From the NCBI GenBank assembly GCA_021613535.1, contig CP075494.1:9796001-9860000 (forward strand): a stretch of 64,000 bases of DNA, written 5' to 3'. A program made the position numbers and the translations under genes. Under the pieces are notes generated by a model. It did no database searches and had not been told where the DNA came from. It saw only the letters and a list, made by a program, of their open reading frames with translations. Of the stretch, positions 3,130-54,705 are shown piece after piece (positions within the stretch are counted from its first letter, which is position 1; each line of letters opens with the position of its first letter). This DNA comes from Adineta vaga. Taxonomy: Eukaryota > Animalia > Rotifera.

Positions 3130-3530
3130 ATCTTATTCCCAAACTTTCATTGGATACATTACGGGTTTCTTCTCGTAAATTCCGTGTCAACATGAGTCCT
3201 TCATCTCTTATTGAATTTAAATATTTGATTCATATAAATGGTCGATACGTATCGCAATTCCTTCTTCACATCTTCCAGAGTATCAATGTATCACTGAAGT
3301 AGAAGATAATCTAGTGGCAATATCTGGTTGATATACCTTGTAATAAATATCAGCTAAATCAGGATGCTGCGAATGGAGTGACTATAAGTCAATTGTTGTC
3401 AATCTTCTCTCATATTAGGAAAGTGGCTCTCATAATTACCTATGTTATTATGTGTTAGACCAATGCTATTGTTGTAGCACATTATAAAACTAGGATAATT
3501 GGATGGAAATGATTGTTTCTTGATCTATAT
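3130..3530 (-). pseudogene. Decayed TPR-repeat gene fragment, same repeat type as the ART-TPR gene at 52369-54705
   Basis: Minus strand reads IKKQSFPSNYPSFIMCYNNSIGLTHNNIGNYE, then frameshifts to PLS*YERRL...*SLHSQHPDLADIYY; matches the S-L-P-x-x-H-P-D-L-A-x-x-Y-N-N-I-G repeat. Confidence 0.7.
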
Positions 3531-3679
3531 TTTTATAAATGAAGTTAAAAAATTGTTTGAGGAAATTTGAATAGTATTACAACATATAAAAAATGAACAC
3601 ATGTTGAATTTTCATCCAGGTTTTACTACTTTGGAAAAAATTTTGTTGAATTCGTTGTTTGATAAAAATATCAGAGAAT

Positions 3680-3745
3680 CAGGGCTCCGCGTGGGATGGG
3701 ATGGGACTCTAAAAAAATTTCTGTCCCATCTCACGCGGAGCCCTG
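3680..3745. mobile_element. 66-bp hAT-type MITE
   Basis: 22-bp TIR CAGGGCTCCGCGTG(G/A)GATGGGA with 21/22 match; perfect 8-bp TSD CAGAGAAT at 3672-3679 and 3746-3753. Confidence 0.9.
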
Positions 3746-4445
3746 CAGAGAATTGTATATTATATGAATAAATTTACTAGAATTTACACACTATCCGTTT
3801 TTAACGTAAGATGGTCATAGTAGTTTGTCCGGTTTTCTATGTTTTGATAGATCTTCATTATCGATGATTAGACCATTAGAGATTGTTGATAATCTGATTA
3901 CCACTTTGTATTGTAACGTTTTGAAATCTGAATCACATGATTTTCTGAATAATAGTTATAGTTAATTTTGGTTAAGGTCACCTGTGTTCTTTGTTTTGTG
4001 AAAGTTGTGTGTATTCCACAAACATTATTGAGCAGAAATCTCAGTATGTGAAGTCAGCATTTTGTCCTACTAAAAATCCCTACGTATGCTTCTTCGGTGC
4101 AAACCAAAATTTACTTTTGTCTGAAGAATTGAAGATCAAGACGTTTTTCTTTCTTTCTTTTTTTATGATATTGTAAAGCACATGAGTAATAAATCAAAGA
4201 CTTAGGAAAGCTCAGACGACACAAAACAGTATTGACTTTCCTGTAACGTTTCTTTCTCTCCTATTTCTATGAAATGATGACTTTGAACAATCATATCCGA
4301 GCAAAATCAGACAATTTTCAAATGATTCAATATTCATCACAAGACATGCTAAGTCGTATAAATAATGTGTTCAAATCTCAGATCCTCAACAACGTTGATC
4401 GTCTTTGAGCTGGCCTCTTCTTTCTTCAATACAAAAAACCACAAC

Positions 4446-5195
4446 ATGTTTTTCTCCAAAATTATACTCGTCATCGTTATTTCATTTGCATTAGCTGATC
4501 ATCGATCGAAACATGATGACATGTGTCCATTCACACGAGATACTCTCTGTGTTAAGGATCTACTCATGACCATTGCAATTGTGGCACGAAGTGTCGATAG
4601 AACAGTAAATGAGATCGAAAGAAATATTCTCTTCAAATATCCAGAAATTGAAACACTCAATCGCTATATTAACTTTGAAATGAGTCACATTCAACCTGGT
4701 CTACCAACACCGCAGTTTCATGTCAGATTCTTCCAAATGAATAACATTGATAAGGTATGAAAGAGTCAAAAATTCGTCATATACTCTATGTTACCATCAT
4801 TGTTGTCATAGAGCTATCTGGTAAATCTTCTTCTAGAAGCACACAATGCTATAAGCTATTATTATAAATCCATTAATACAATTTTGGCTATGAAAGAGAT
4901 TACATCTTTCACAAGTGATTTATGGTTTGAACAAATTCGAAACAATCTTCGAGACGAAATGATTTGCCGATATCGAAATGTCTTAAGTGTATATTCAGAT
5001 GTATGGCCATCAATAAATGAAGTGAATGAAATTCAGTTTTCTCGACGAAAATATGCAAGTTCACCATCAATGGTGCATGATGTACATGCGATGATAGTAA
5101 TTCGATTGTTAAGATATTGGACGAATAAAATAAATGGTGTTTTAACGAATATGGAAAGTAAATACTATTCAAGAACAACGAAAACTAAGACATGA
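4446..5195 (+). CDS. Secreted helical protein, paralog A (230 aa); candidate long-chain helical cytokine
   Basis: Exons 4446-4754 and 4812-5195 (phase-0 intron); signal peptide MFFSKIILVIVISFALA; paralogous to 6958-7776 and 8610-9353; TATAAATA at 4357-4364. Confidence is for the gene model; function is inferred. Confidence 0.85.
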
Positions 5196-5301
5196 TTAAA
5201 AAGTTTGCTATTTTTTTTAATATGAATATCGATCGTCTTTTAAATAATAAATATCATTGATTCTGAACACTATTAATTCTCTTGTTGATTACTTAAAGAT
5301 A

Positions 5302-6220
5302 CAGGTTGATTCACTTATTTTTGCTCATTTTGCTTAGTCTACTTTGTTTCAGCAAACTTTCAAAACGTTTCTGTTTTTATATGGTTGGATAGAGCATCGA
5401 TTACTCTATCGAAACATATAGTTTTCATTTATACGTATTTGATTCTAGTCTGAAAATTTTATCAATCTCTAAGAAGTACTAAAAAAAAACTTTTGCAGAG
5501 CTATTTTCTTGAAAAAATCTATGTATTTTACCTTACAAATAATTTTTTATTCTTTACACTACCCTAGCCGTTTCAAAATTTATTTCGAAACATTTAAAGC
5601 AGTGAAAATATCGAAAAATGCTACTATTATTTAAGAACTTTGTTTTGGAACATTTTAAAGGATTTTCATAATATTTTAAATATTTGATCTAAATAAACAA
5701 TTTGACTTTTTTTACTATGTACAGTTTGTAGAGTTCGATGAGCTCTATCAAACTATGTAAAAATATTTAAAGTAAAAACTTTTCTCCAGTGCTGAATTAC
5801 AGACATCTCAACTCTGTGCACCAAACAGTGGATGAAGCTTTTAAAAATTGATTTAGCTGGATATCAAAAAGTTCGTATAACCCTTACTATTTAGTACTAA
5901 TAAATAGTATCTTTGACGAGCTTTCATTTAATATAAAATTCATTATATACTCTCTGAAGTAATATCAATTGCAACCGTATATTATATGCACATAGCATCG
6001 CAAAATCGTTAAAATAATGCAGGTTTTCAAAAAAAAATTTTCGTACTTTTTAAAGATTGAGAAAATTTTTGGATTGGAACCAAAGAAGAAAAAATGTTAA
6101 TTACTGTTTCGATAGAGTAATTGATGCTCTATCTAACTATATGAAAAAAGAAACGTTTTGACAGTTTGCTAAAACACAGTAAACAGAAGAAAAATGAGCA
6201 AAAATAAGTGAATCAACCTG
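5302..6220. mobile_element. Non-autonomous Tc1/mariner-like element with long TIRs
   Basis: TA|CAGGTTGATTCACTTATTTTTGCTCATTTT ... AAAATGAGCAAAAATAAGTGAATCAACCTG|TA; inverted similarity is clear for about 115 bp and patchy to about 200 bp; no ORF in the track. Confidence 0.88.
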
Positions 6221-9521: not shown

Positions 9522-10525
9522 TTATGAGTTGAGACCATATAATAGAAAATCCATTAAATAAATTTCTTGTGGTTTCATGTAATGATATGAAACACTTCGA
9601 TCACTGCAACAGTTGTAATGCTAGATACATAATTTATTTTTTAGAAAAAATGAAAAAATATTTCATTCTCTTACTTTTTTCAATGGATTTTCTGCATAGG
9701 TTTTCAACCATTTTGGAAATAAACCAAGAAAATGTGCACTAAAAGATAATGGATGAAACAAATCACGATTCTCTTCATCTGTTGATCTGCCCACATAAAC
9801 ACCATGTTCTCGTAGACATTTAGCGATTTCAATATCTTCCATTCCACCATCTTTACGACAGGTTTTATTATCAGAATTCTGATGAGCTTGATAGAAACGT
9901 TTCAATGCTTCACGACTTAATACATAGGATGCTCCACCAGAATGATAACCATTATCTACAAGAACCTAAAAGAAATGAAAAAGATGTTTTTAAAGATCAA
10001 TTTTCGAAAGATATTTACCTTAAAATTATATCCAAATGTAACCGGTTCTGATGGATCTTGTAATTTTAGAAATTCTTTTAAATATTCCACAATTAAATAT
10101 GTATCATCATCTGCTTTTACAAACCAATCAAATGCATGAAAATAATTCTTATAAGCAAACAAGAATGCTAATACAGTTTTTTCTGTTAAATGTTGATAGC
10201 CAGGTTGAATATTATCAATAGGTGCAATTGGTATTCGTTTAGCAAATTGTTTTTGTTTGTATGTCATGTTTTTGTGTGCATATTCACTTATAAAAAACAA
10301 TCCATCACAACGTAGTCCCCATGTTGAGTTTATTGCTCGTGCACGTGTAAAAAAATATTTCGGTGAAGTTAATACTAAACAACATATACTTCCTGATCTG
10401 TTTGAATAAGTATCGAATGTGTCATCATCAAAATCGTTTCCAAAATTGATCTTTATGATTATGATCAATGCTATAATAAGGCAAAATACAATTGTCGTCC
10501 GAAAAATTTGATGTATTGTAATCAT
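9522..10525 (-). CDS. C1GALT1: Core 1 beta-1,3-galactosyltransferase (T-synthase)-like
   Basis: Type II TM anchor, TWGLRCD, DWFVKADDDTY, SGGASYVLSREAL, EDIEIAKCL, CCSDRSVSYHY. Confidence 0.9.
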
Positions 10526-48707: not shown

Positions 48708-51700
48708 ATGGATGAATCTATTCAATATCCAATCTCTTCTCATTTCGTACGTGGTGGAACATCGATACTTGCTGTAAATAGTCTAGATAATCGATTAATT
48801 GCAGCTGGTCAACAGAGTAAGTATCGAATATTGAATGTTCTTGGATAAATTTTCTCAATTTAGATTTTCAATTATTTTCCATCAAACAAATTGATCATAC
48901 TGTACAATTTATTGAACTGTATGATTTTCGTATTGCACCGAAACAGTCAAAAGTACCATGGTGTACATTACAACCCAAGGATGTCAGTTGGAATCGACAT
49001 GAAGGTAAAACAAATTTGATATTATGAAAATTCATCACAATATTCTTTTCTAGAAAATTCTTTTGCTACGACAAGTAGTACAAATGGTTATGTATATATT
49101 TGGGATGTTACACGATTAGATACTGTTAATCAATTGGATACGCATAGTACAATCATCAATCGAATTCAATTTCATCCGAAAAGTAAACTATAATGACGAA
49201 TTTATTCGAATTCATCGATTTCTTTCAATTAGATCCGAATATATTGTTGACTGCATCTCAAGATGGATATGCAAAGGTAATTATTTATAGGAGAACATTT
49301 GATTGAAAAGAGAATTAAATTGTATACTTTTTGTCTTCTTTGTAGTTAATTGATTTGCGACTCAGTACTCCTGATAAAGTTGCATCATCATTTCGACATT
49401 CAAGTAAAGAAGCATTTCGTGATATTGATATCAATCCATCAAATGACGAAAAATTTGCTGCTGTTATTAAGGATCAATTTTCTGTACCTGTAAGTAAATT
49501 GATTTGACATGCAAACTTATCCTTTTGATACTGTATGGTTTTTTTTAGATATGGGATATTCGACAGCCTGCTCAACCAGATTTTTCTGTATTTACACGAG
49601 ATAGAGTCTCATATGTTTTATGGAATCCTCACGAACGTTCTTGGCTAGCTACTGGTGGAATTGGTAATCATGATCGAACGATACGTGTAAGTTAATATAA
49701 AATCTCCTTCGAAATCGTCTTATTTTTCTCTTGAAATAAATAGATATGGGATGCTAAAGGCAATGACAGTCGTCAAGAACCTTTATATACAGTGTATACA
49801 TTTCGTCAAGTAACAAAATTTAGTTGGCGTCCAACATGTCGATATCATATTGCATCTTTAACACGTAACGGTGATCAACGTATTCATGTTTGGGATATTC
49901 GACGTGCTTATTTACCTCAAGCATCATTTTGTCATCATCGAAGTATAAGAAAAAATTCATTTTCATTGATAACAAAACAAATAAGAAACTTTTCTTTTCT
50001 TTCCTAGGCGATATTGGAGATTTTCTTTGGCGACCGAATTCGGATAATTTGATCTCTGTTGATCGTGGTGAGTGTTTAACTCATGCTCATTACTCGAATG
50101 CAGTTAAAAGTGATCAACTTGTTTCATTATATTCTTTGAATGTAACATCTAACGGCTCTTTATATGTATGTCAACCCAATATCGATAATGATTATGTACG
50201 TGCATTATACAAAAAAGAAAATATTCGATTATCTGATACAAGTTTTCAAAAACTCTATTCACAAAAAACGATATCAACATTTAATGAATGGAATAAAGTT
50301 ATCGAAGGTAGAAGTATTCTAGGAATTCTTAAGGATTCTTCGCAAGATAATTCAGTTCAATTATTTCATCAATTTGCTCGACGGTGGACTTTTGGTAATG
50401 GCGATAAATCACTTCAAGCATTGGAACATATCTGTGATATGAATAGTAAAATTGCTCAAGATTTAAATCGACCGGATCTAAAAGCTACATGGCAAATGAT
50501 TAAAATGTTATATCCTGATCATGATACTTTAAAAAAACGTCGTATTCGATCATCCAAAACATCAAGATCATTAACGAGAGGTTTTCGTAATAGTGATTCA
50601 GTAGGTGGTGGAAGTCGCCATCATCCTCAGCATCAAACAATAAAGACATTAAATGATATTGATGAACAACTATTACTACAAGAATATCAATTAAATAATG
50701 AATTCAAAGATGAAAGAACAATCAAATCGAAAGAACAAAGAACTTTGTCTGATTCGAAATTAAGTATGGAAATTTGTTTTCTATTAGGTTTACCTATTAA
50801 ACAAACGTATCATTCTAATTTTAGCAATGGTAGACGATTTGGATACGTATATCGTTCGAGATGTACTCACAGATGATATTATCTTTATTACACCTGCAGA
50901 TCTACTCGCGAATGATATTGGATTCGATGCATTACAGGATGAGAATGTATACTTTAAACAAAATGTTTTTCTTTTTATAAAATAATTTTTGATAGTGTGA
51001 TATTGAAACGATGCGAACTGGTTTACCTTTGCCGATAAAATCAACCGGAACACCACTTACTGATAATGATTGTAGTTATTTTTCAATAGATCAAGTCATA
51101 CGAAAATCTCCTGAAGTAATAATGAGTGATGATAGTGATGGTGATTTGAAAAGTGATGAAGAATTCGAAGAGTAAGTATACAGGATCTAGAAGAATCAGG
51201 AGATCTCATTGAAATGATGAGAAGAAAATAACGAGAGTTTTCTTTAGTATCGACAGTATCATGGAAACATCGATACATTCAATTATTCCTAATGGTTCAG
51301 ATAATTTTTTCACTATCGGTGAAAGTTATTGTCCTACAATCCAAAAACATGTATTAAATTTCGATGAAATTGTACGACAAACACTCTGGTATTATATAGA
51401 AAATGTAAAGTTATTTGTCGTATCTTCGAAAAACAAAATGAAGATGTCTGGTTTTCTTTTGTATTATTTAGAATGAACTTCAAATGGCTGTTCATCTTCT
51501 TCTTGCCTTATATCCTCAATTGAGTGAACAGAAACGAGTTGAACTATTCAATGGAGCACATATACAATGGATCGTAATGTATATTGGTATGTATCCTGAT
51601 TGTTATCGATAAAAATCGATTGATTTATTCATTTAGAATTATTACAAAAGATGCGTTTATTTGTAAAAGCAAAACAAGTTATAAAACATTGCATAGAAAA

Positions 51701-52124
51701 TGAAAATATTCGATTACATTATAATCCTACTGAATTTGAGGATACACTTATTCTACGTACGCCAACTCCATCATTACCACGTTTGCTTTCAGCTGCTTCT
51801 CCTTCTACATCTTTTTCTACTAAAACTGCTCAACCTGTAACACGAGAATTTATTTGTTCTATTTGGTAAGTGCTATGATATTGATAAACAAATTTCATTA
51901 ATATCATTCTTCTCTTTAGTCGAATTCCATGTCGTAGTTTATTTTCATTTTGTGGTATTTGTTTTCATGGTGGTCATATTGAACATATTGAAGCATGGTT
52001 TGAAAAACATGAGGAATGTTCACATGGTTGCGGTCATCGATGTCGAGATTATCAGAGTAAAAATCATCCGACACGCATAGCACAACGTTCGATTTCTAAA
52101 CCATCGCTTAATGTTCAAAAATAA
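48708..52124 (+). CDS. WDR24: GATOR2 subunit WDR24-like
   Basis: N-terminal WD40s (LLTASQDG, WRPTCRYHIAS, IHVWDIRRAYLP); C-terminal CSIC...CGICFHGGHIEHIEAWF...CSHGCGHRC. Confidence 0.85.
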
Positions 52125-52368
52125 GATTTTATTTTTGAATCTCACATGTATACATATACATATATATAGTAGTAATCTATTTTCATTGTTTTGGATATAT
52201 AGTAATTAATTGTTTTAGGAGAAAGTGTTAGTAAATATTTAATTTTGTAATATTCAAGAAAATTATTATTGTTTTTTTTTCTTCTTTTTATCATATATAA
52301 ATCTAGAGATATCCAGTGGATAGAATATTTTCTTATCGAAGAAAAAAAAGGAAACAAACTAATATTTA

Positions 52369-54705
52369 TCATTTTTCTTTCATACGCTCTAAATTGTTTC
52401 GATATTTTTGAAGATCAGGATGACTTGAAGGTAATGAACATTGAGCAATGTGTACAGCACGTTCAAAAGATAAATATGCAGATGAGAAATCATTCAAGTT
52501 TCTATATGTTATACCAAGATTGTTGTAAGTAACACTGAGACTGAGATGATCGGAAGAAAGTGATTCTTGTTGAATTTCTAAAGCTTTCTCGTAAGTTGAA
52601 AGCGCTTTTGAATAGTCACTCATACTATTGTATATTCTGCCGATGTTGTTGTATGATTTTATCAAATCCGAGGGATTTAAATTAGAGGATTGTTGTTGGA
52701 TTTCGAGTACTTTTTCGTAACATATGAGTTCTTGCTTATAATTTTCCATACTTCTATATAAGAGAGCGATGTTTCTGTAGGTTTGTATTAGACGAGGATG
52801 ATTCGAAGAAATTGAATGTTTTTGAATATCAAGAACCTTTTCATACGATGATAGTGCTCGTGAATATTCACCTAATTTACGATATACTATAGCAATGTTG
52901 TTGTAGGACAGAATGAAATCAGGATGATACGAAGGAAGTGATTTTTCTTGCATATCAAGAGCTTTTTCAAAGAAACAAAGCGCTTTTTCATTCTCATCCA
53001 TTTGAGCATATATAATACCATGATTGATATAACATTTCGCTAAATCAGGATGATTCGGAGGATAAGATTGTTGTTTAATTTGAAGAGATTTTTCATGATA
53101 GGAAAGTGCTTTCAAACGATCACGGATCTTTCGATAGACTACGCCCATATTCGTGTAGGAAGCACTTAAAGATGGATGATTCGAAGGAAGTATTGCTTCT
53201 TTGATTTTCAATGCTTTTAAATGATAAGAAAGTGCATCTGAATATTGACCATTATTTTCATATACTGTACCAATATTATTGTAGGAACTTGCTAAACAAA
53301 GATGATCATGTGGAAGTATTTTGAGATAAATATCGATGGATTCTTTATACAATTCAATGGCTTGTTGATATTCTCCTTGATCTTCTTTTGCTTTTCCAAG
53401 TCGATTATAAATTAAACCTTTATCCTTATCATCCATAGTTTGTTCAAGTAACATTCGATAAACTTGTTCTGCCTTGTCGAATTGACCCAGTCGACGTAAT
53501 AATACACCTAAACGAAACCATCCTATGGTTCCTTCTGCTTCTTTTCGAATACTTTCAGTAAGTTGACAAAGATCTTCATCATTATCACTAGTCAATCTTA
53601 AATCTACTTGATAAAGACATTGATCTTCATCGATTGATTTGATATTTTCAACACGAAAAATTGTATGCATAGAAAAGAGAATTTCATCTTCAGTATTTCT
53701 GTAACATCCAACATCTGCGATGGAAGCAAATGGTGTTTTCGATTGAGAAGGATCAATGATTATCACGAAAAGAATACGAATCATATTGGTATTATTGAAT
53801 GTTTGAGAAGCGAATTTAAGTGAAACATGACGATCTTTACTAGTCGATAAGAAATTATTAATCGCCATCAATCTACCTTTGGTATTGATTAGTCGATCAA
53901 AATCTATTTTTGATAAACTTTGACCACGATAAACTGTAAAAGTTTTATTCGAAGTAGAATAGTACGATTGTTTATTGTACAAATATTCGATATGATGATG
54001 TAAATCAACAATAAAAAAACCCATTCTAATAATAATAGTAATATCCATAGTACGAAGTGCATGATTAAGCATACGGTATAAAAAGCATTCGTAAGTATAC
54101 CACCAAATTGGTGTTTGATATCGATAGTTTTCTTCAAATGTTTTGATATTCTGTAATTCATAATCATTATTAGAAAAATATTCTCGACAATAAAGAATAA
54201 ATTCATCAACATGTTTCTTCTCAAAATCAATTGTTAATAAAATCTCTTTAAGAATTTGTGTATACATAAACGAACAATCGAGTTGATTGAGATTCTTTTG
54301 AGAAATATTTTCATTTGTCGATATAAAACTAAGCGAGATAATGTCCTGTTCACATTCATTTGCCAGTTGTTTTAGTCTTTCACAAATAGATGCAATCTCG
54401 GTAAAAATACCTTTGATTTTCGCCCATTCTTCATGTCGTTCTATATCACCACAAAAAATAAAAATCGAATTTATTTGACATAAATCATGAACCCGAGGTA
54501 TAACATACTGTCCAAGTGAACCTGAAATAATCAAACCAATATTTTCATGACTAAGACTTCTAATGAATTCGATGCATTCATCACTGTCAGTGTAAATATG
54601 AATAGGATTAACAATACGTCGTAATTGAACAATCGCGTGCTGAAAATCATCACTATTGTTGTTGATATTGTTATCAAGCCATATGAAAAGTAGATTTTTT
54701 AACAT
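52369..54705 (-). CDS. Intronless pseudo-receiver + mono-ADP-ribosyltransferase (R-S-E) + 9 TPR protein
   Basis: 778-aa ORF; LLFIWLD...IGLIISG receiver-like N-terminus; WWYT...LNHALR, TVYRGQ, FLSTS, EDEILF; about 42-aa HPxLxxxYNNIG TPR repeats. Confidence 0.85.
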   Translation of the reverse strand: MLKNLLFIWLDNNINNNSDDFQHAIVQLRRIVNPIHIYTDSDECIEFIRSLSHENIGLIISGSLGQYVIPRVHDLCQINSIFIFCGDIERHEEWAKIKGIFTEIASICERLKQLANECEQDIISLSFISTNENISQKNLNQLDCSFMYTQILKEILLTIDFEKKHVDEFILYCREYFSNNDYELQNIKTFEENYRYQTPIWWYTYECFLYRMLNHALRTMDITIIIRMGFFIVDLHHHIEYLYNKQSYYSTSNKTFTVYRGQSLSKIDFDRLINTKGRLMAINNFLSTSKDRHVSLKFASQTFNNTNMIRILFVIIIDPSQSKTPFASIADVGCYRNTEDEILFSMHTIFRVENIKSIDEDQCLYQVDLRLTSDNDEDLCQLTESIRKEAEGTIGWFRLGVLLRRLGQFDKAEQVYRMLLEQTMDDKDKGLIYNRLGKAKEDQGEYQQAIELYKESIDIYLKILPHDHLCLASSYNNIGTVYENNGQYSDALSYHLKALKIKEAILPSNHPSLSASYTNMGVVYRKIRDRLKALSYHEKSLQIKQQSYPPNHPDLAKCYINHGIIYAQMDENEKALCFFEKALDMQEKSLPSYHPDFILSYNNIAIVYRKLGEYSRALSSYEKVLDIQKHSISSNHPRLIQTYRNIALLYRSMENYKQELICYEKVLEIQQQSSNLNPSDLIKSYNNIGRIYNSMSDYSKALSTYEKALEIQQESLSSDHLSLSVTYNNLGITYRNLNDFSSAYLSFERAVHIAQCSLPSSHPDLQKYRNNLERMKEK

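Follow-up and report, generated by a model that had tools for sequence, protein, structure and literature searches.

The bdelloid rotifer Adineta vaga carries an intronless gene whose product, here called P0001, joins a receiver-fold domain, an R-S-E-type ADP-ribosyltransferase (ART) and a TPR array in a single chain. The architecture is real and previously undescribed, and the large family to which it belongs bears marks of immune-like evolution: repeat codons 3, 10, 13 and 32 diversify in relatives while the core stays under purifying selection. Giving the idea even chances, we propose that the receiver-ART-TPR family consists of cytosolic defence enzymes, in which a foreign protein would be caught in the TPR groove and ADP-ribosylated on an arginine by the ART.

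The gene occupies positions 52369..54705 on the reverse strand of the window, by which we mean the whole 64,000-nucleotide stretch of DNA analysed, and reads as a single frame of 778 amino acids. The 195 nt upstream of the ORF contain no ATG, a contig of run X14 spans the gene start up to 54802 without a joint, and no splice-type joint falls within 52369-54705 among the joints listed for the X13 and X14 contigs. The intronless ORF of the preliminary description is thereby upheld. Window GC is 31%, and the neighbours are animal housekeeping genes (CBP/p300, Cbl, IFT122, TMEM26, an SNase-domain gene and a mitochondrial carrier); P0001 is the only member of the family in the 64 kb. A short TPR-like match to the 42-residue repeat profile (E 2e-5) lies on the same strand at 3402-3524, with no receiver or ART near it. 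The downstream neighbour, on the forward strand at 51472-52338, is spliced at 51585-51636 and 51864-51919, and its RNA contig extends to 52338, 30 nt from the P0001 stop, the two genes lying tail to tail. Pfam returned no match for one exon of this neighbour, which by its motifs we take to resemble MIOS/GATOR2.

The R-S-E ART spans residues 147-373, approximately. Structure was modelled with AF2 for residues 1-460 from a 100-sequence alignment (pLDDT 81.9, pTM 0.73). The beta-core of the ART (residues 253-373, 53587..53949), supported by Foldseek and by structural and profile alignment, is preceded by a helical N-terminal lobe (residues 122-252, 53950..54342), which is apparent in the AF2 secondary structure, carries WWYT and LN-x-ALR motifs and is aligned inside the matches to HopU1, ART2.2 and XopAI. 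Foldseek with the ART region retrieves Vis (E 1.8e-6, prob 1.00), and structural alignment matches HopU1 (Z 13.9, rmsd 3.7, 190 aligned), 6drh (Z 13.0), Vis (12.6) and ART2.2 (12.2, 181 aligned). A profile alignment of the region to Vis includes the E-x-E (E 0.055). Pfam PF01129 scores 20.2 bits on P0001, under its 22.3 cut-off, and is matched at E<=0.1 by 49 of 93 relatives. No ART or receiver family is among the 25 NCBIfam matches listed for P0001, PADLOC reports the TPRs only, and PDB sequence searches gave nothing at E<0.001.

The catalytic residues are R260 (YRG, 53926..53928), the STS motif (residues 287-289, 53839..53847) and the ExE motif E339-D-E341 (53683..53691). Among 120 homologues R260, S287, T288, S289, E339 and E341 are conserved in 120, 117, 117, 118, 116 and 120, respectively, and R260 is also found in 142 of 150 representatives. 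The combined R/S/S/E/E set is intact in 112 of the 120 close homologues and R/S/E/E in 122 of the 150 best representatives of separate 50%-identity clusters. Both the complete triad and the Arg-type ART fold claimed beforehand are thus borne out, and the per-domain structure check recommended at that time finds an ART fold here and a receiver fold at the N-terminus.

Within the R-S-E clade of ARTs, the ExE motif is established as conferring arginine specificity. Judged by modelled fold and motifs, P0001 belongs to this R-S-E (ARTC) clade. It shares R, STS and ExE with the R-S-E mono-ARTs (HopU1, 3u0j; the 6drh toxin; Vis, 4xzj; XopAI; SpvB; VIP2/C2/iota; C3), whose fold matches reach Z 11-14 across 150-190 residues, the closest of them taking in the helical N-lobe. 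In contrast to these bacterial-type enzymes, to which it is only 11-23% identical, P0001 belongs to a family that is present in many copies in an animal genome and fused to a receiver fold and a TPR array, and no delivery or secretion part is seen in it. The vertebrate ecto-ARTs (ART2.2, 1gxy; PF01129) have the fold in common with P0001 (Z 12.2), but P0001 carries extra domains, is intronless and has neither a signal peptide nor a GPI-type tail. The lack of both, anticipated in the preliminary description, agrees with a crude hydropathy test in which neither terminus has a hydrophobic segment (the highest Kyte-Doolittle 19-mer scores are -0.25 N-terminally and 0.33 C-terminally). By its sequence, P0001 is not an ecto-ART.

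The N-terminal domain (residues 4-121, 54343..54696) is CheY-like in the AF2 model, with five strands and five helices in alternation. Folded alone, it has a response-regulator receiver as its best structural match (Z 11.4, rmsd 2.8, 113 aligned), and 40 of the 50 top structural-match titles name a receiver, a response regulator or CheY. The same five-strand, five-helix fold is shared by CheY-like receivers, atypical receivers and the Adc/LdcI wing. Foldseek with these residues is weak (best E 1.5e-3) and places decarboxylase N-terminal domains of the Adc/LdcI wing type on top; Pfam finds no match in the region. The Ser noted previously at the phospho-Asp site is confirmed as a family trait: when sites are assigned from DSSP and receiver topology alone, strand 3 ends in Ser61 in 116 of the 120 close homologues and in 119 of the 150 distant representatives, and strand 5 ends in Thr102 in 112 and 94 of them, respectively, Lys standing there in 5 of the 150. 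The position after Ser61 is Gly in 88 of the 150 and Asp in 21. Because strand 3 ends in Ser and strand 5 mostly in Thr, the canonical Asp and Lys are absent. D11 is kept. The family differs from canonical receivers in this loss of the conserved strand-3 Asp and strand-5 Lys and in a conserved W-x-K motif of its own, with K96 in 145 of 150 representatives; P0001 itself has a 4-residue deletion before K96. As modelled, the N-terminus has a receiver fold but is not a canonical receiver.

The C-terminal half of the protein holds two cap TPRs (residues 393-470, 53296..53529), supported by profile matches and AF2, seven 42-residue TPR repeats (residues 471-764, 52414..53295) and a closing helix (residues 765-778, 52372..52413). 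The nine TPRs described earlier are therefore real, whereas the fixed scaffold attributed to them is not found in P0001, whose repeats are 38% alike on average, the second lowest value of 39 genes. Among 609 repeats from 120 homologues, the 42-residue spacing holds in 495 of 499 cases, and entropy peaks at positions 3, 10, 13 and 32 (3.3-3.7 bits). Position 14 can be added to these family-variable sites, and positions 3, 10, 13 and 14 occupy the helix face that also bears the conserved N6 and N7. Of the helix-A residues previously quoted as variable (positions 2-7), position 3 is indeed hypervariable, whereas Y5, N6 and N7 are scaffold. Repeat number ranges from 0 to 12 among the 120 homologues, a range read from short-read assemblies in which arrays may have collapsed.

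Across the receiver, helical and ART parts of relatives dN/dS is 0.19-0.39, as estimated from independent gene pairs in a set of 59 genes that remained from 75 after near-duplicate removal. In the repeats, gene pairs were picked on half of the scaffold codons and dS was taken from the held-out half (test A; about 29 pairs per split). The resulting dN/dS is 3.3 at positions 3/10/13/32 (the 20 splits spanning 2.3-5.0), whereas the scaffold has 0.45, figures that are approximate, as NG86 counting was applied to recombining repeats. This test replaced a first estimate (2.1 overall, 4.7 in close pairs), which was dropped because its pairs had been chosen on scaffold identity and were biased. The encoded amino acid has changed at 86 of the 140 hypervariable codons, compared with 172 of 1,295 in the scaffold, and silent change is not significantly in excess (7/50 versus 92/1,095, p 0.19). 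Two or three base changes are needed for 59 of the 86 replacements at hypervariable sites, which, without raised silent change, fits old divergent codons kept while the scaffold was homogenised. Codon-level hypermutation was also considered and is unsupported. Diversifying selection on TPR positions of one helix-A face, an expectation of the preliminary description, thus holds in relatives at the level of the family.

Diversification is not uniform. When gene pairs were instead picked on the core and their repeats matched by order (test B), pooled hypervariable-site dN was 0.31, and dS was 0.33 in the repeat scaffold and 0.19 in the core. In 4 of the 8 informative pairs the arrays are stable and the variable sites nearly unchanged, so that only some members of the family diversify. 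The remaining pairs differ in repeat number or content despite close cores, as in one example in which cores 99.1% identical carry 13 and 2 repeats, a contrast to which assembly collapse may contribute.

These patterns bear on whether selection is needed at all. An intronless cassette could have been copied genome-wide by neutral or selfish spread, with unequal crossing-over alone producing the repeat variation. Such a cassette would suit the 74 of 80 best metagenome loci in which the core is one uninterrupted ORF amid unrelated neighbours, the broken copies at four loci (L001, L012, L038 and L062) and a 1-nt deletion in P0001 on one contig of run X7. Yet the core dN/dS, the allelic pN/pS of P0001 (0.31, p 0.006), the conserved catalytic residues and the centring of variation on four codons without excess silent change all oppose it. 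Neutral spread is very unlikely and, for the family, largely refuted.

In the available part of Dyrka et al. (PMC4986451), the TPRs of fungal NLRs show positive selection at concave sites together with repeat-number polymorphism. The high-internal-conservation arrays of that study, of the Podospora Pa_2_10340 type, have an effector enzyme N-terminal to KLC-like TPRs, as in P0001, and both groups combine repeat-number variation with a few positively selected sites on concave helices. The P0001 family differs from the fungal NLRs in its ART effector, leading pseudo-receiver and animal host, and in the lack of NACHT/NB-ARC. Pfam detects no P-loop NTPase (NACHT/NB-ARC) in P0001, whose residues 1-392 are filled by the receiver and ART folds. 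Having no NTPase domain, P0001 is not an NLR, and the earlier term 'NLR-analogous' fits the evolution of the repeats but not the domain content.

An NLR-like alarm would nonetheless account for the same selection and family size as the defence enzyme that we prefer. The TPR array would restrain the ART until a ligand frees it, and host modification or NAD+ drain would then shut down the cell or tissue. Besides the parallel evolution of fungal NLR TPRs (PMC4986451), the available part of PMC9503650 counts NADases among R-S-E enzymes, and the low transcript cover of P0001 would weakly suit a dangerous effector. Against this, P0001 has neither an NTPase nor an oligomerisation domain, and the ExE is kept in most members, as in protein-arginine modifiers. 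Bdelloids have fixed cell numbers and syncytial tissue, which would make cell suicide costly. We regard such an alarm as unlikely.

The size of the family was assessed in several ways. Residues 1-395 matched 2,421 of 6,245 candidates of similar length, 5 of 1,722 longer and 628 of 1,521 shorter ones. A TPR-free core profile retrieved 7,712, 5,506 and 2,468 clusters (50% identity) at E 1e-3, 1e-10 and 1e-30, respectively, in keeping with the expanded family that had been suspected; inspection at the cluster level covers the best 150 of the 7,712. Isolate-derived named relatives are bdelloid rotifers throughout (Adineta steineri, A. ricciae, A. vaga, Rotaria spp.), and the nearest Atlas clusters to a stored homologue are Rotifera. 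In run X8, from the same organism, contigs of partial paralogues map, 67 of 140 being less than 90% alike. As a rough scale that takes in other ART architectures and is not a family count, the Arg-ART GO term is carried by 431 gene models of A. vaga and 366 of A. ricciae in the available Suppl. Data 3 of PMC11258130, where 542 gene models carry the broader protein ADP-ribosylation process term, against the 431.

UniRef names in Adineta and Rotaria members, such as 'NAD(P)(+)--arginine ADP-ribosyltransferase' and 'ADP ribosyltransferase domain-containing protein', are machine labels for the same family, whose receiver fold, selection pattern and function are undescribed in the literature searched. 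No description of the family was found there, subscription papers being outside reach, and none appears in the available parts of PMC3417536, PMC12220480, PMC10809525, PMC2861651, PMC8195603, PMC4986451, PMC11258130, PMC12804077, PMC9503650 and bioRxiv 10.64898/2026.09.30.754977.

The long unexplained tails inspected from the 150 closest cluster representatives all proved to consist of TPR arrays, some of them frameshifted, or of what look like fused gene models; a search for C-terminal domain swaps, proposed beforehand, found none in these tails. Neighbours sampled at the longer metagenome loci include animal-type genes such as 7TM receptors, dynein and an Ig/fn3 protein. Several variant forms were seen alongside. 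A doubled receiver-ART core, an N-terminal GTPase-like fusion and multiple receivers occur among P0122, P0123, P0125 and P0282, some of which may be gene-model fusions. At L056, L057 and L059 a lone receiver-fold ORF (e.g. L056:10066-10605) follows some 100 nt downstream of a complete family gene, and Rotifera clusters of 142-161 aa in the Atlas match the receiver region. At L012 an in-frame stop (9609-9611) interrupts a member's TPR array, whose repeats run on to 10346. The same locus encodes on its reverse strand (3532-5307), 2.6 kb from the receiver-ART-TPR gene, an Arg-type ART followed by an NHL beta-propeller, which is only distantly related to the ART of the family.

The origin of the family was sought outside animals. 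A GTDB scan yielded no genuine prokaryotic homologue. Its one match, L001 in an Acetobacteraceae MAG, was rejected as a bacterial homologue: the contig is chimeric, its GC falling from 66% to about 35% before the match, and the copy is broken and followed by a fragmented P-type ATPase-like gene. Along this contig (about 4000-11244), rhamnose-pathway-like genes of 66% GC are joined to DNA of 28-38% GC. No family match was found in 400 other genomes of the same phylum or in plasmids, and none of 48 candidate stretches in viral contigs belongs to the family. A single 1.2-kb fragment with an archaeal-MAG label (P0170) is among the protein matches. At 31% GC, P0001 equals the window, its composition matching the host. 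An ancient horizontal origin, raised as a possibility in the preliminary description, thus gains no bona fide prokaryotic homologue from GTDB, viral contigs or plasmids; since both folds are typical of bacteria, an old acquisition is plausible.

The copy in the window is itself divergent. P0001 branches outside its nearest matches (57% identity, against 68% among them), with no close relative in the sample. At 20 sites it differs from columns that are nearly invariant among its homologues, against a median of 5 (rank 2 of 121), differences that may be due in part to this distance. Together with its degenerate TPR array, they count against the defence reading for P0001. It also lacks the N-terminal extension, which is 37 residues long in 43 of 120 homologues and absent in 7. 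Against the allele in run X10 it shows 15 replacement and 12 silent differences, with no stop (pN/pS 0.31, p 0.006) and no change at the hypervariable sites of the seven repeats. Purifying selection with invariant TPRs, the pattern named at the outset as contrary to a defence role, is therefore seen in part, between these two alleles. On one X7 contig (depth 6) a 1-nt deletion at window position 54542, near codon 55, is absent in X6 and X10 and represents a frameshift allele or an error.

Evidence for transcription of P0001 comes from one study, at contig level. In run X13 two GT-AG introns of the adjacent gene are spliced out, so this run contains RNA. Its contigs cover five stretches of P0001 at depth 3-4, with nothing upstream of 54784, and run X14, derived from the same sample in the same study, gives a similar picture. 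None of the runs listed as matching P0001 is registered as RNA, and run X22, from another study and taken as RNA by guess, gave only chance pieces of 18-21 nt. P0001 is intact and weakly transcribed. Its array looks frozen, and we propose that it represents an old, stabilised specificity.

How such a protein might act as a defence enzyme can be sketched. A foreign protein or peptide would be bound in the variable TPR groove, the conserved Asn6/Asn7 ladder possibly gripping the peptide backbone while positions 3/10/13/14 read its side chains. Kinesin-light-chain-type TPRs provide the model for an Asn-ladder grip of this kind. The ART would then move ADP-ribose from NAD+ onto an arginine of the captured protein, with the ExE motif predicted to set the specificity for Arg. 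The captured protein is the probable substrate, since P0001 lacks an oligomerising NTPase through which a signal could be amplified. The non-phosphorylatable receiver may serve as a regulatory or docking module, and new specificities would arise through repeat shuffling and gene duplication.

The main evidence contrary to this defence reading comes from fungal challenge. In the available data of PMC11258130, the down-regulated HGT candidates are enriched for the Arg-ART GO term, with 6/431 in A. vaga at 7 h, 19/431 in A. vaga at 24 h and 8/366 in A. ricciae at 24 h, and the up-regulated sheets contain no row for this term. These figures apply to the GO class as a whole, other ART architectures included. 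Pathogen challenge, suggested earlier as a check, is represented by these fungal data alone, in which the class goes down rather than up. Constitutive receptors would not need to be induced.

The same lack of induction by a fungus would suit endogenous signalling or stress enzymes whose TPRs pick host substrates, as in OGT and FicD, with a role in desiccation, repair or development. 'ADP-ribosylation' GO terms are enriched in over-expressed genes around desiccation in the available part of PMC10809525 and in under-expressed genes during spaceflight in that of PMC12220480, and the arrays are frozen in several gene pairs and in P0001. The authors of these two studies, as far as the available text goes, link the terms to PARPs or leave them unresolved. 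Host substrates would also leave unexplained a dN/dS above 1 on one helix face, the thousands of divergent clusters and the frequent broken copies. An endogenous role is accordingly rather improbable, and we retain the defence enzyme as the preferred reading.

How ancient asexual bdelloids keep up with parasites is a long-standing question, and a multi-hundred-gene family with a repeat-shuffled, diversifying predicted binding surface is a concrete candidate for bdelloid parasite defence. Tentatively, the family may constitute an intracellular anti-parasite repertoire of hundreds of TPR-aimed, pseudo-receiver-gated Arg-ARTs per genome, an NTPase-free counterpart of NLRs that gains new specificities without sex. 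The A. vaga 'ADP-ribosylation' enrichment under spaceflight is interpreted as PARP biology in the available text of that paper (PMC12220480); this enrichment and the one around desiccation (PMC10809525, in its available part) may stem from hundreds of Arg-ART genes. More generally, where bdelloid transcriptomes are enriched for 'protein ADP-ribosylation', Arg-ARTs rather than PARPs may often be responsible. If the proposal is true, the family would be one of few examples of an animal using cytosolic Arg-type ARTs and receiver-fold domains at scale.
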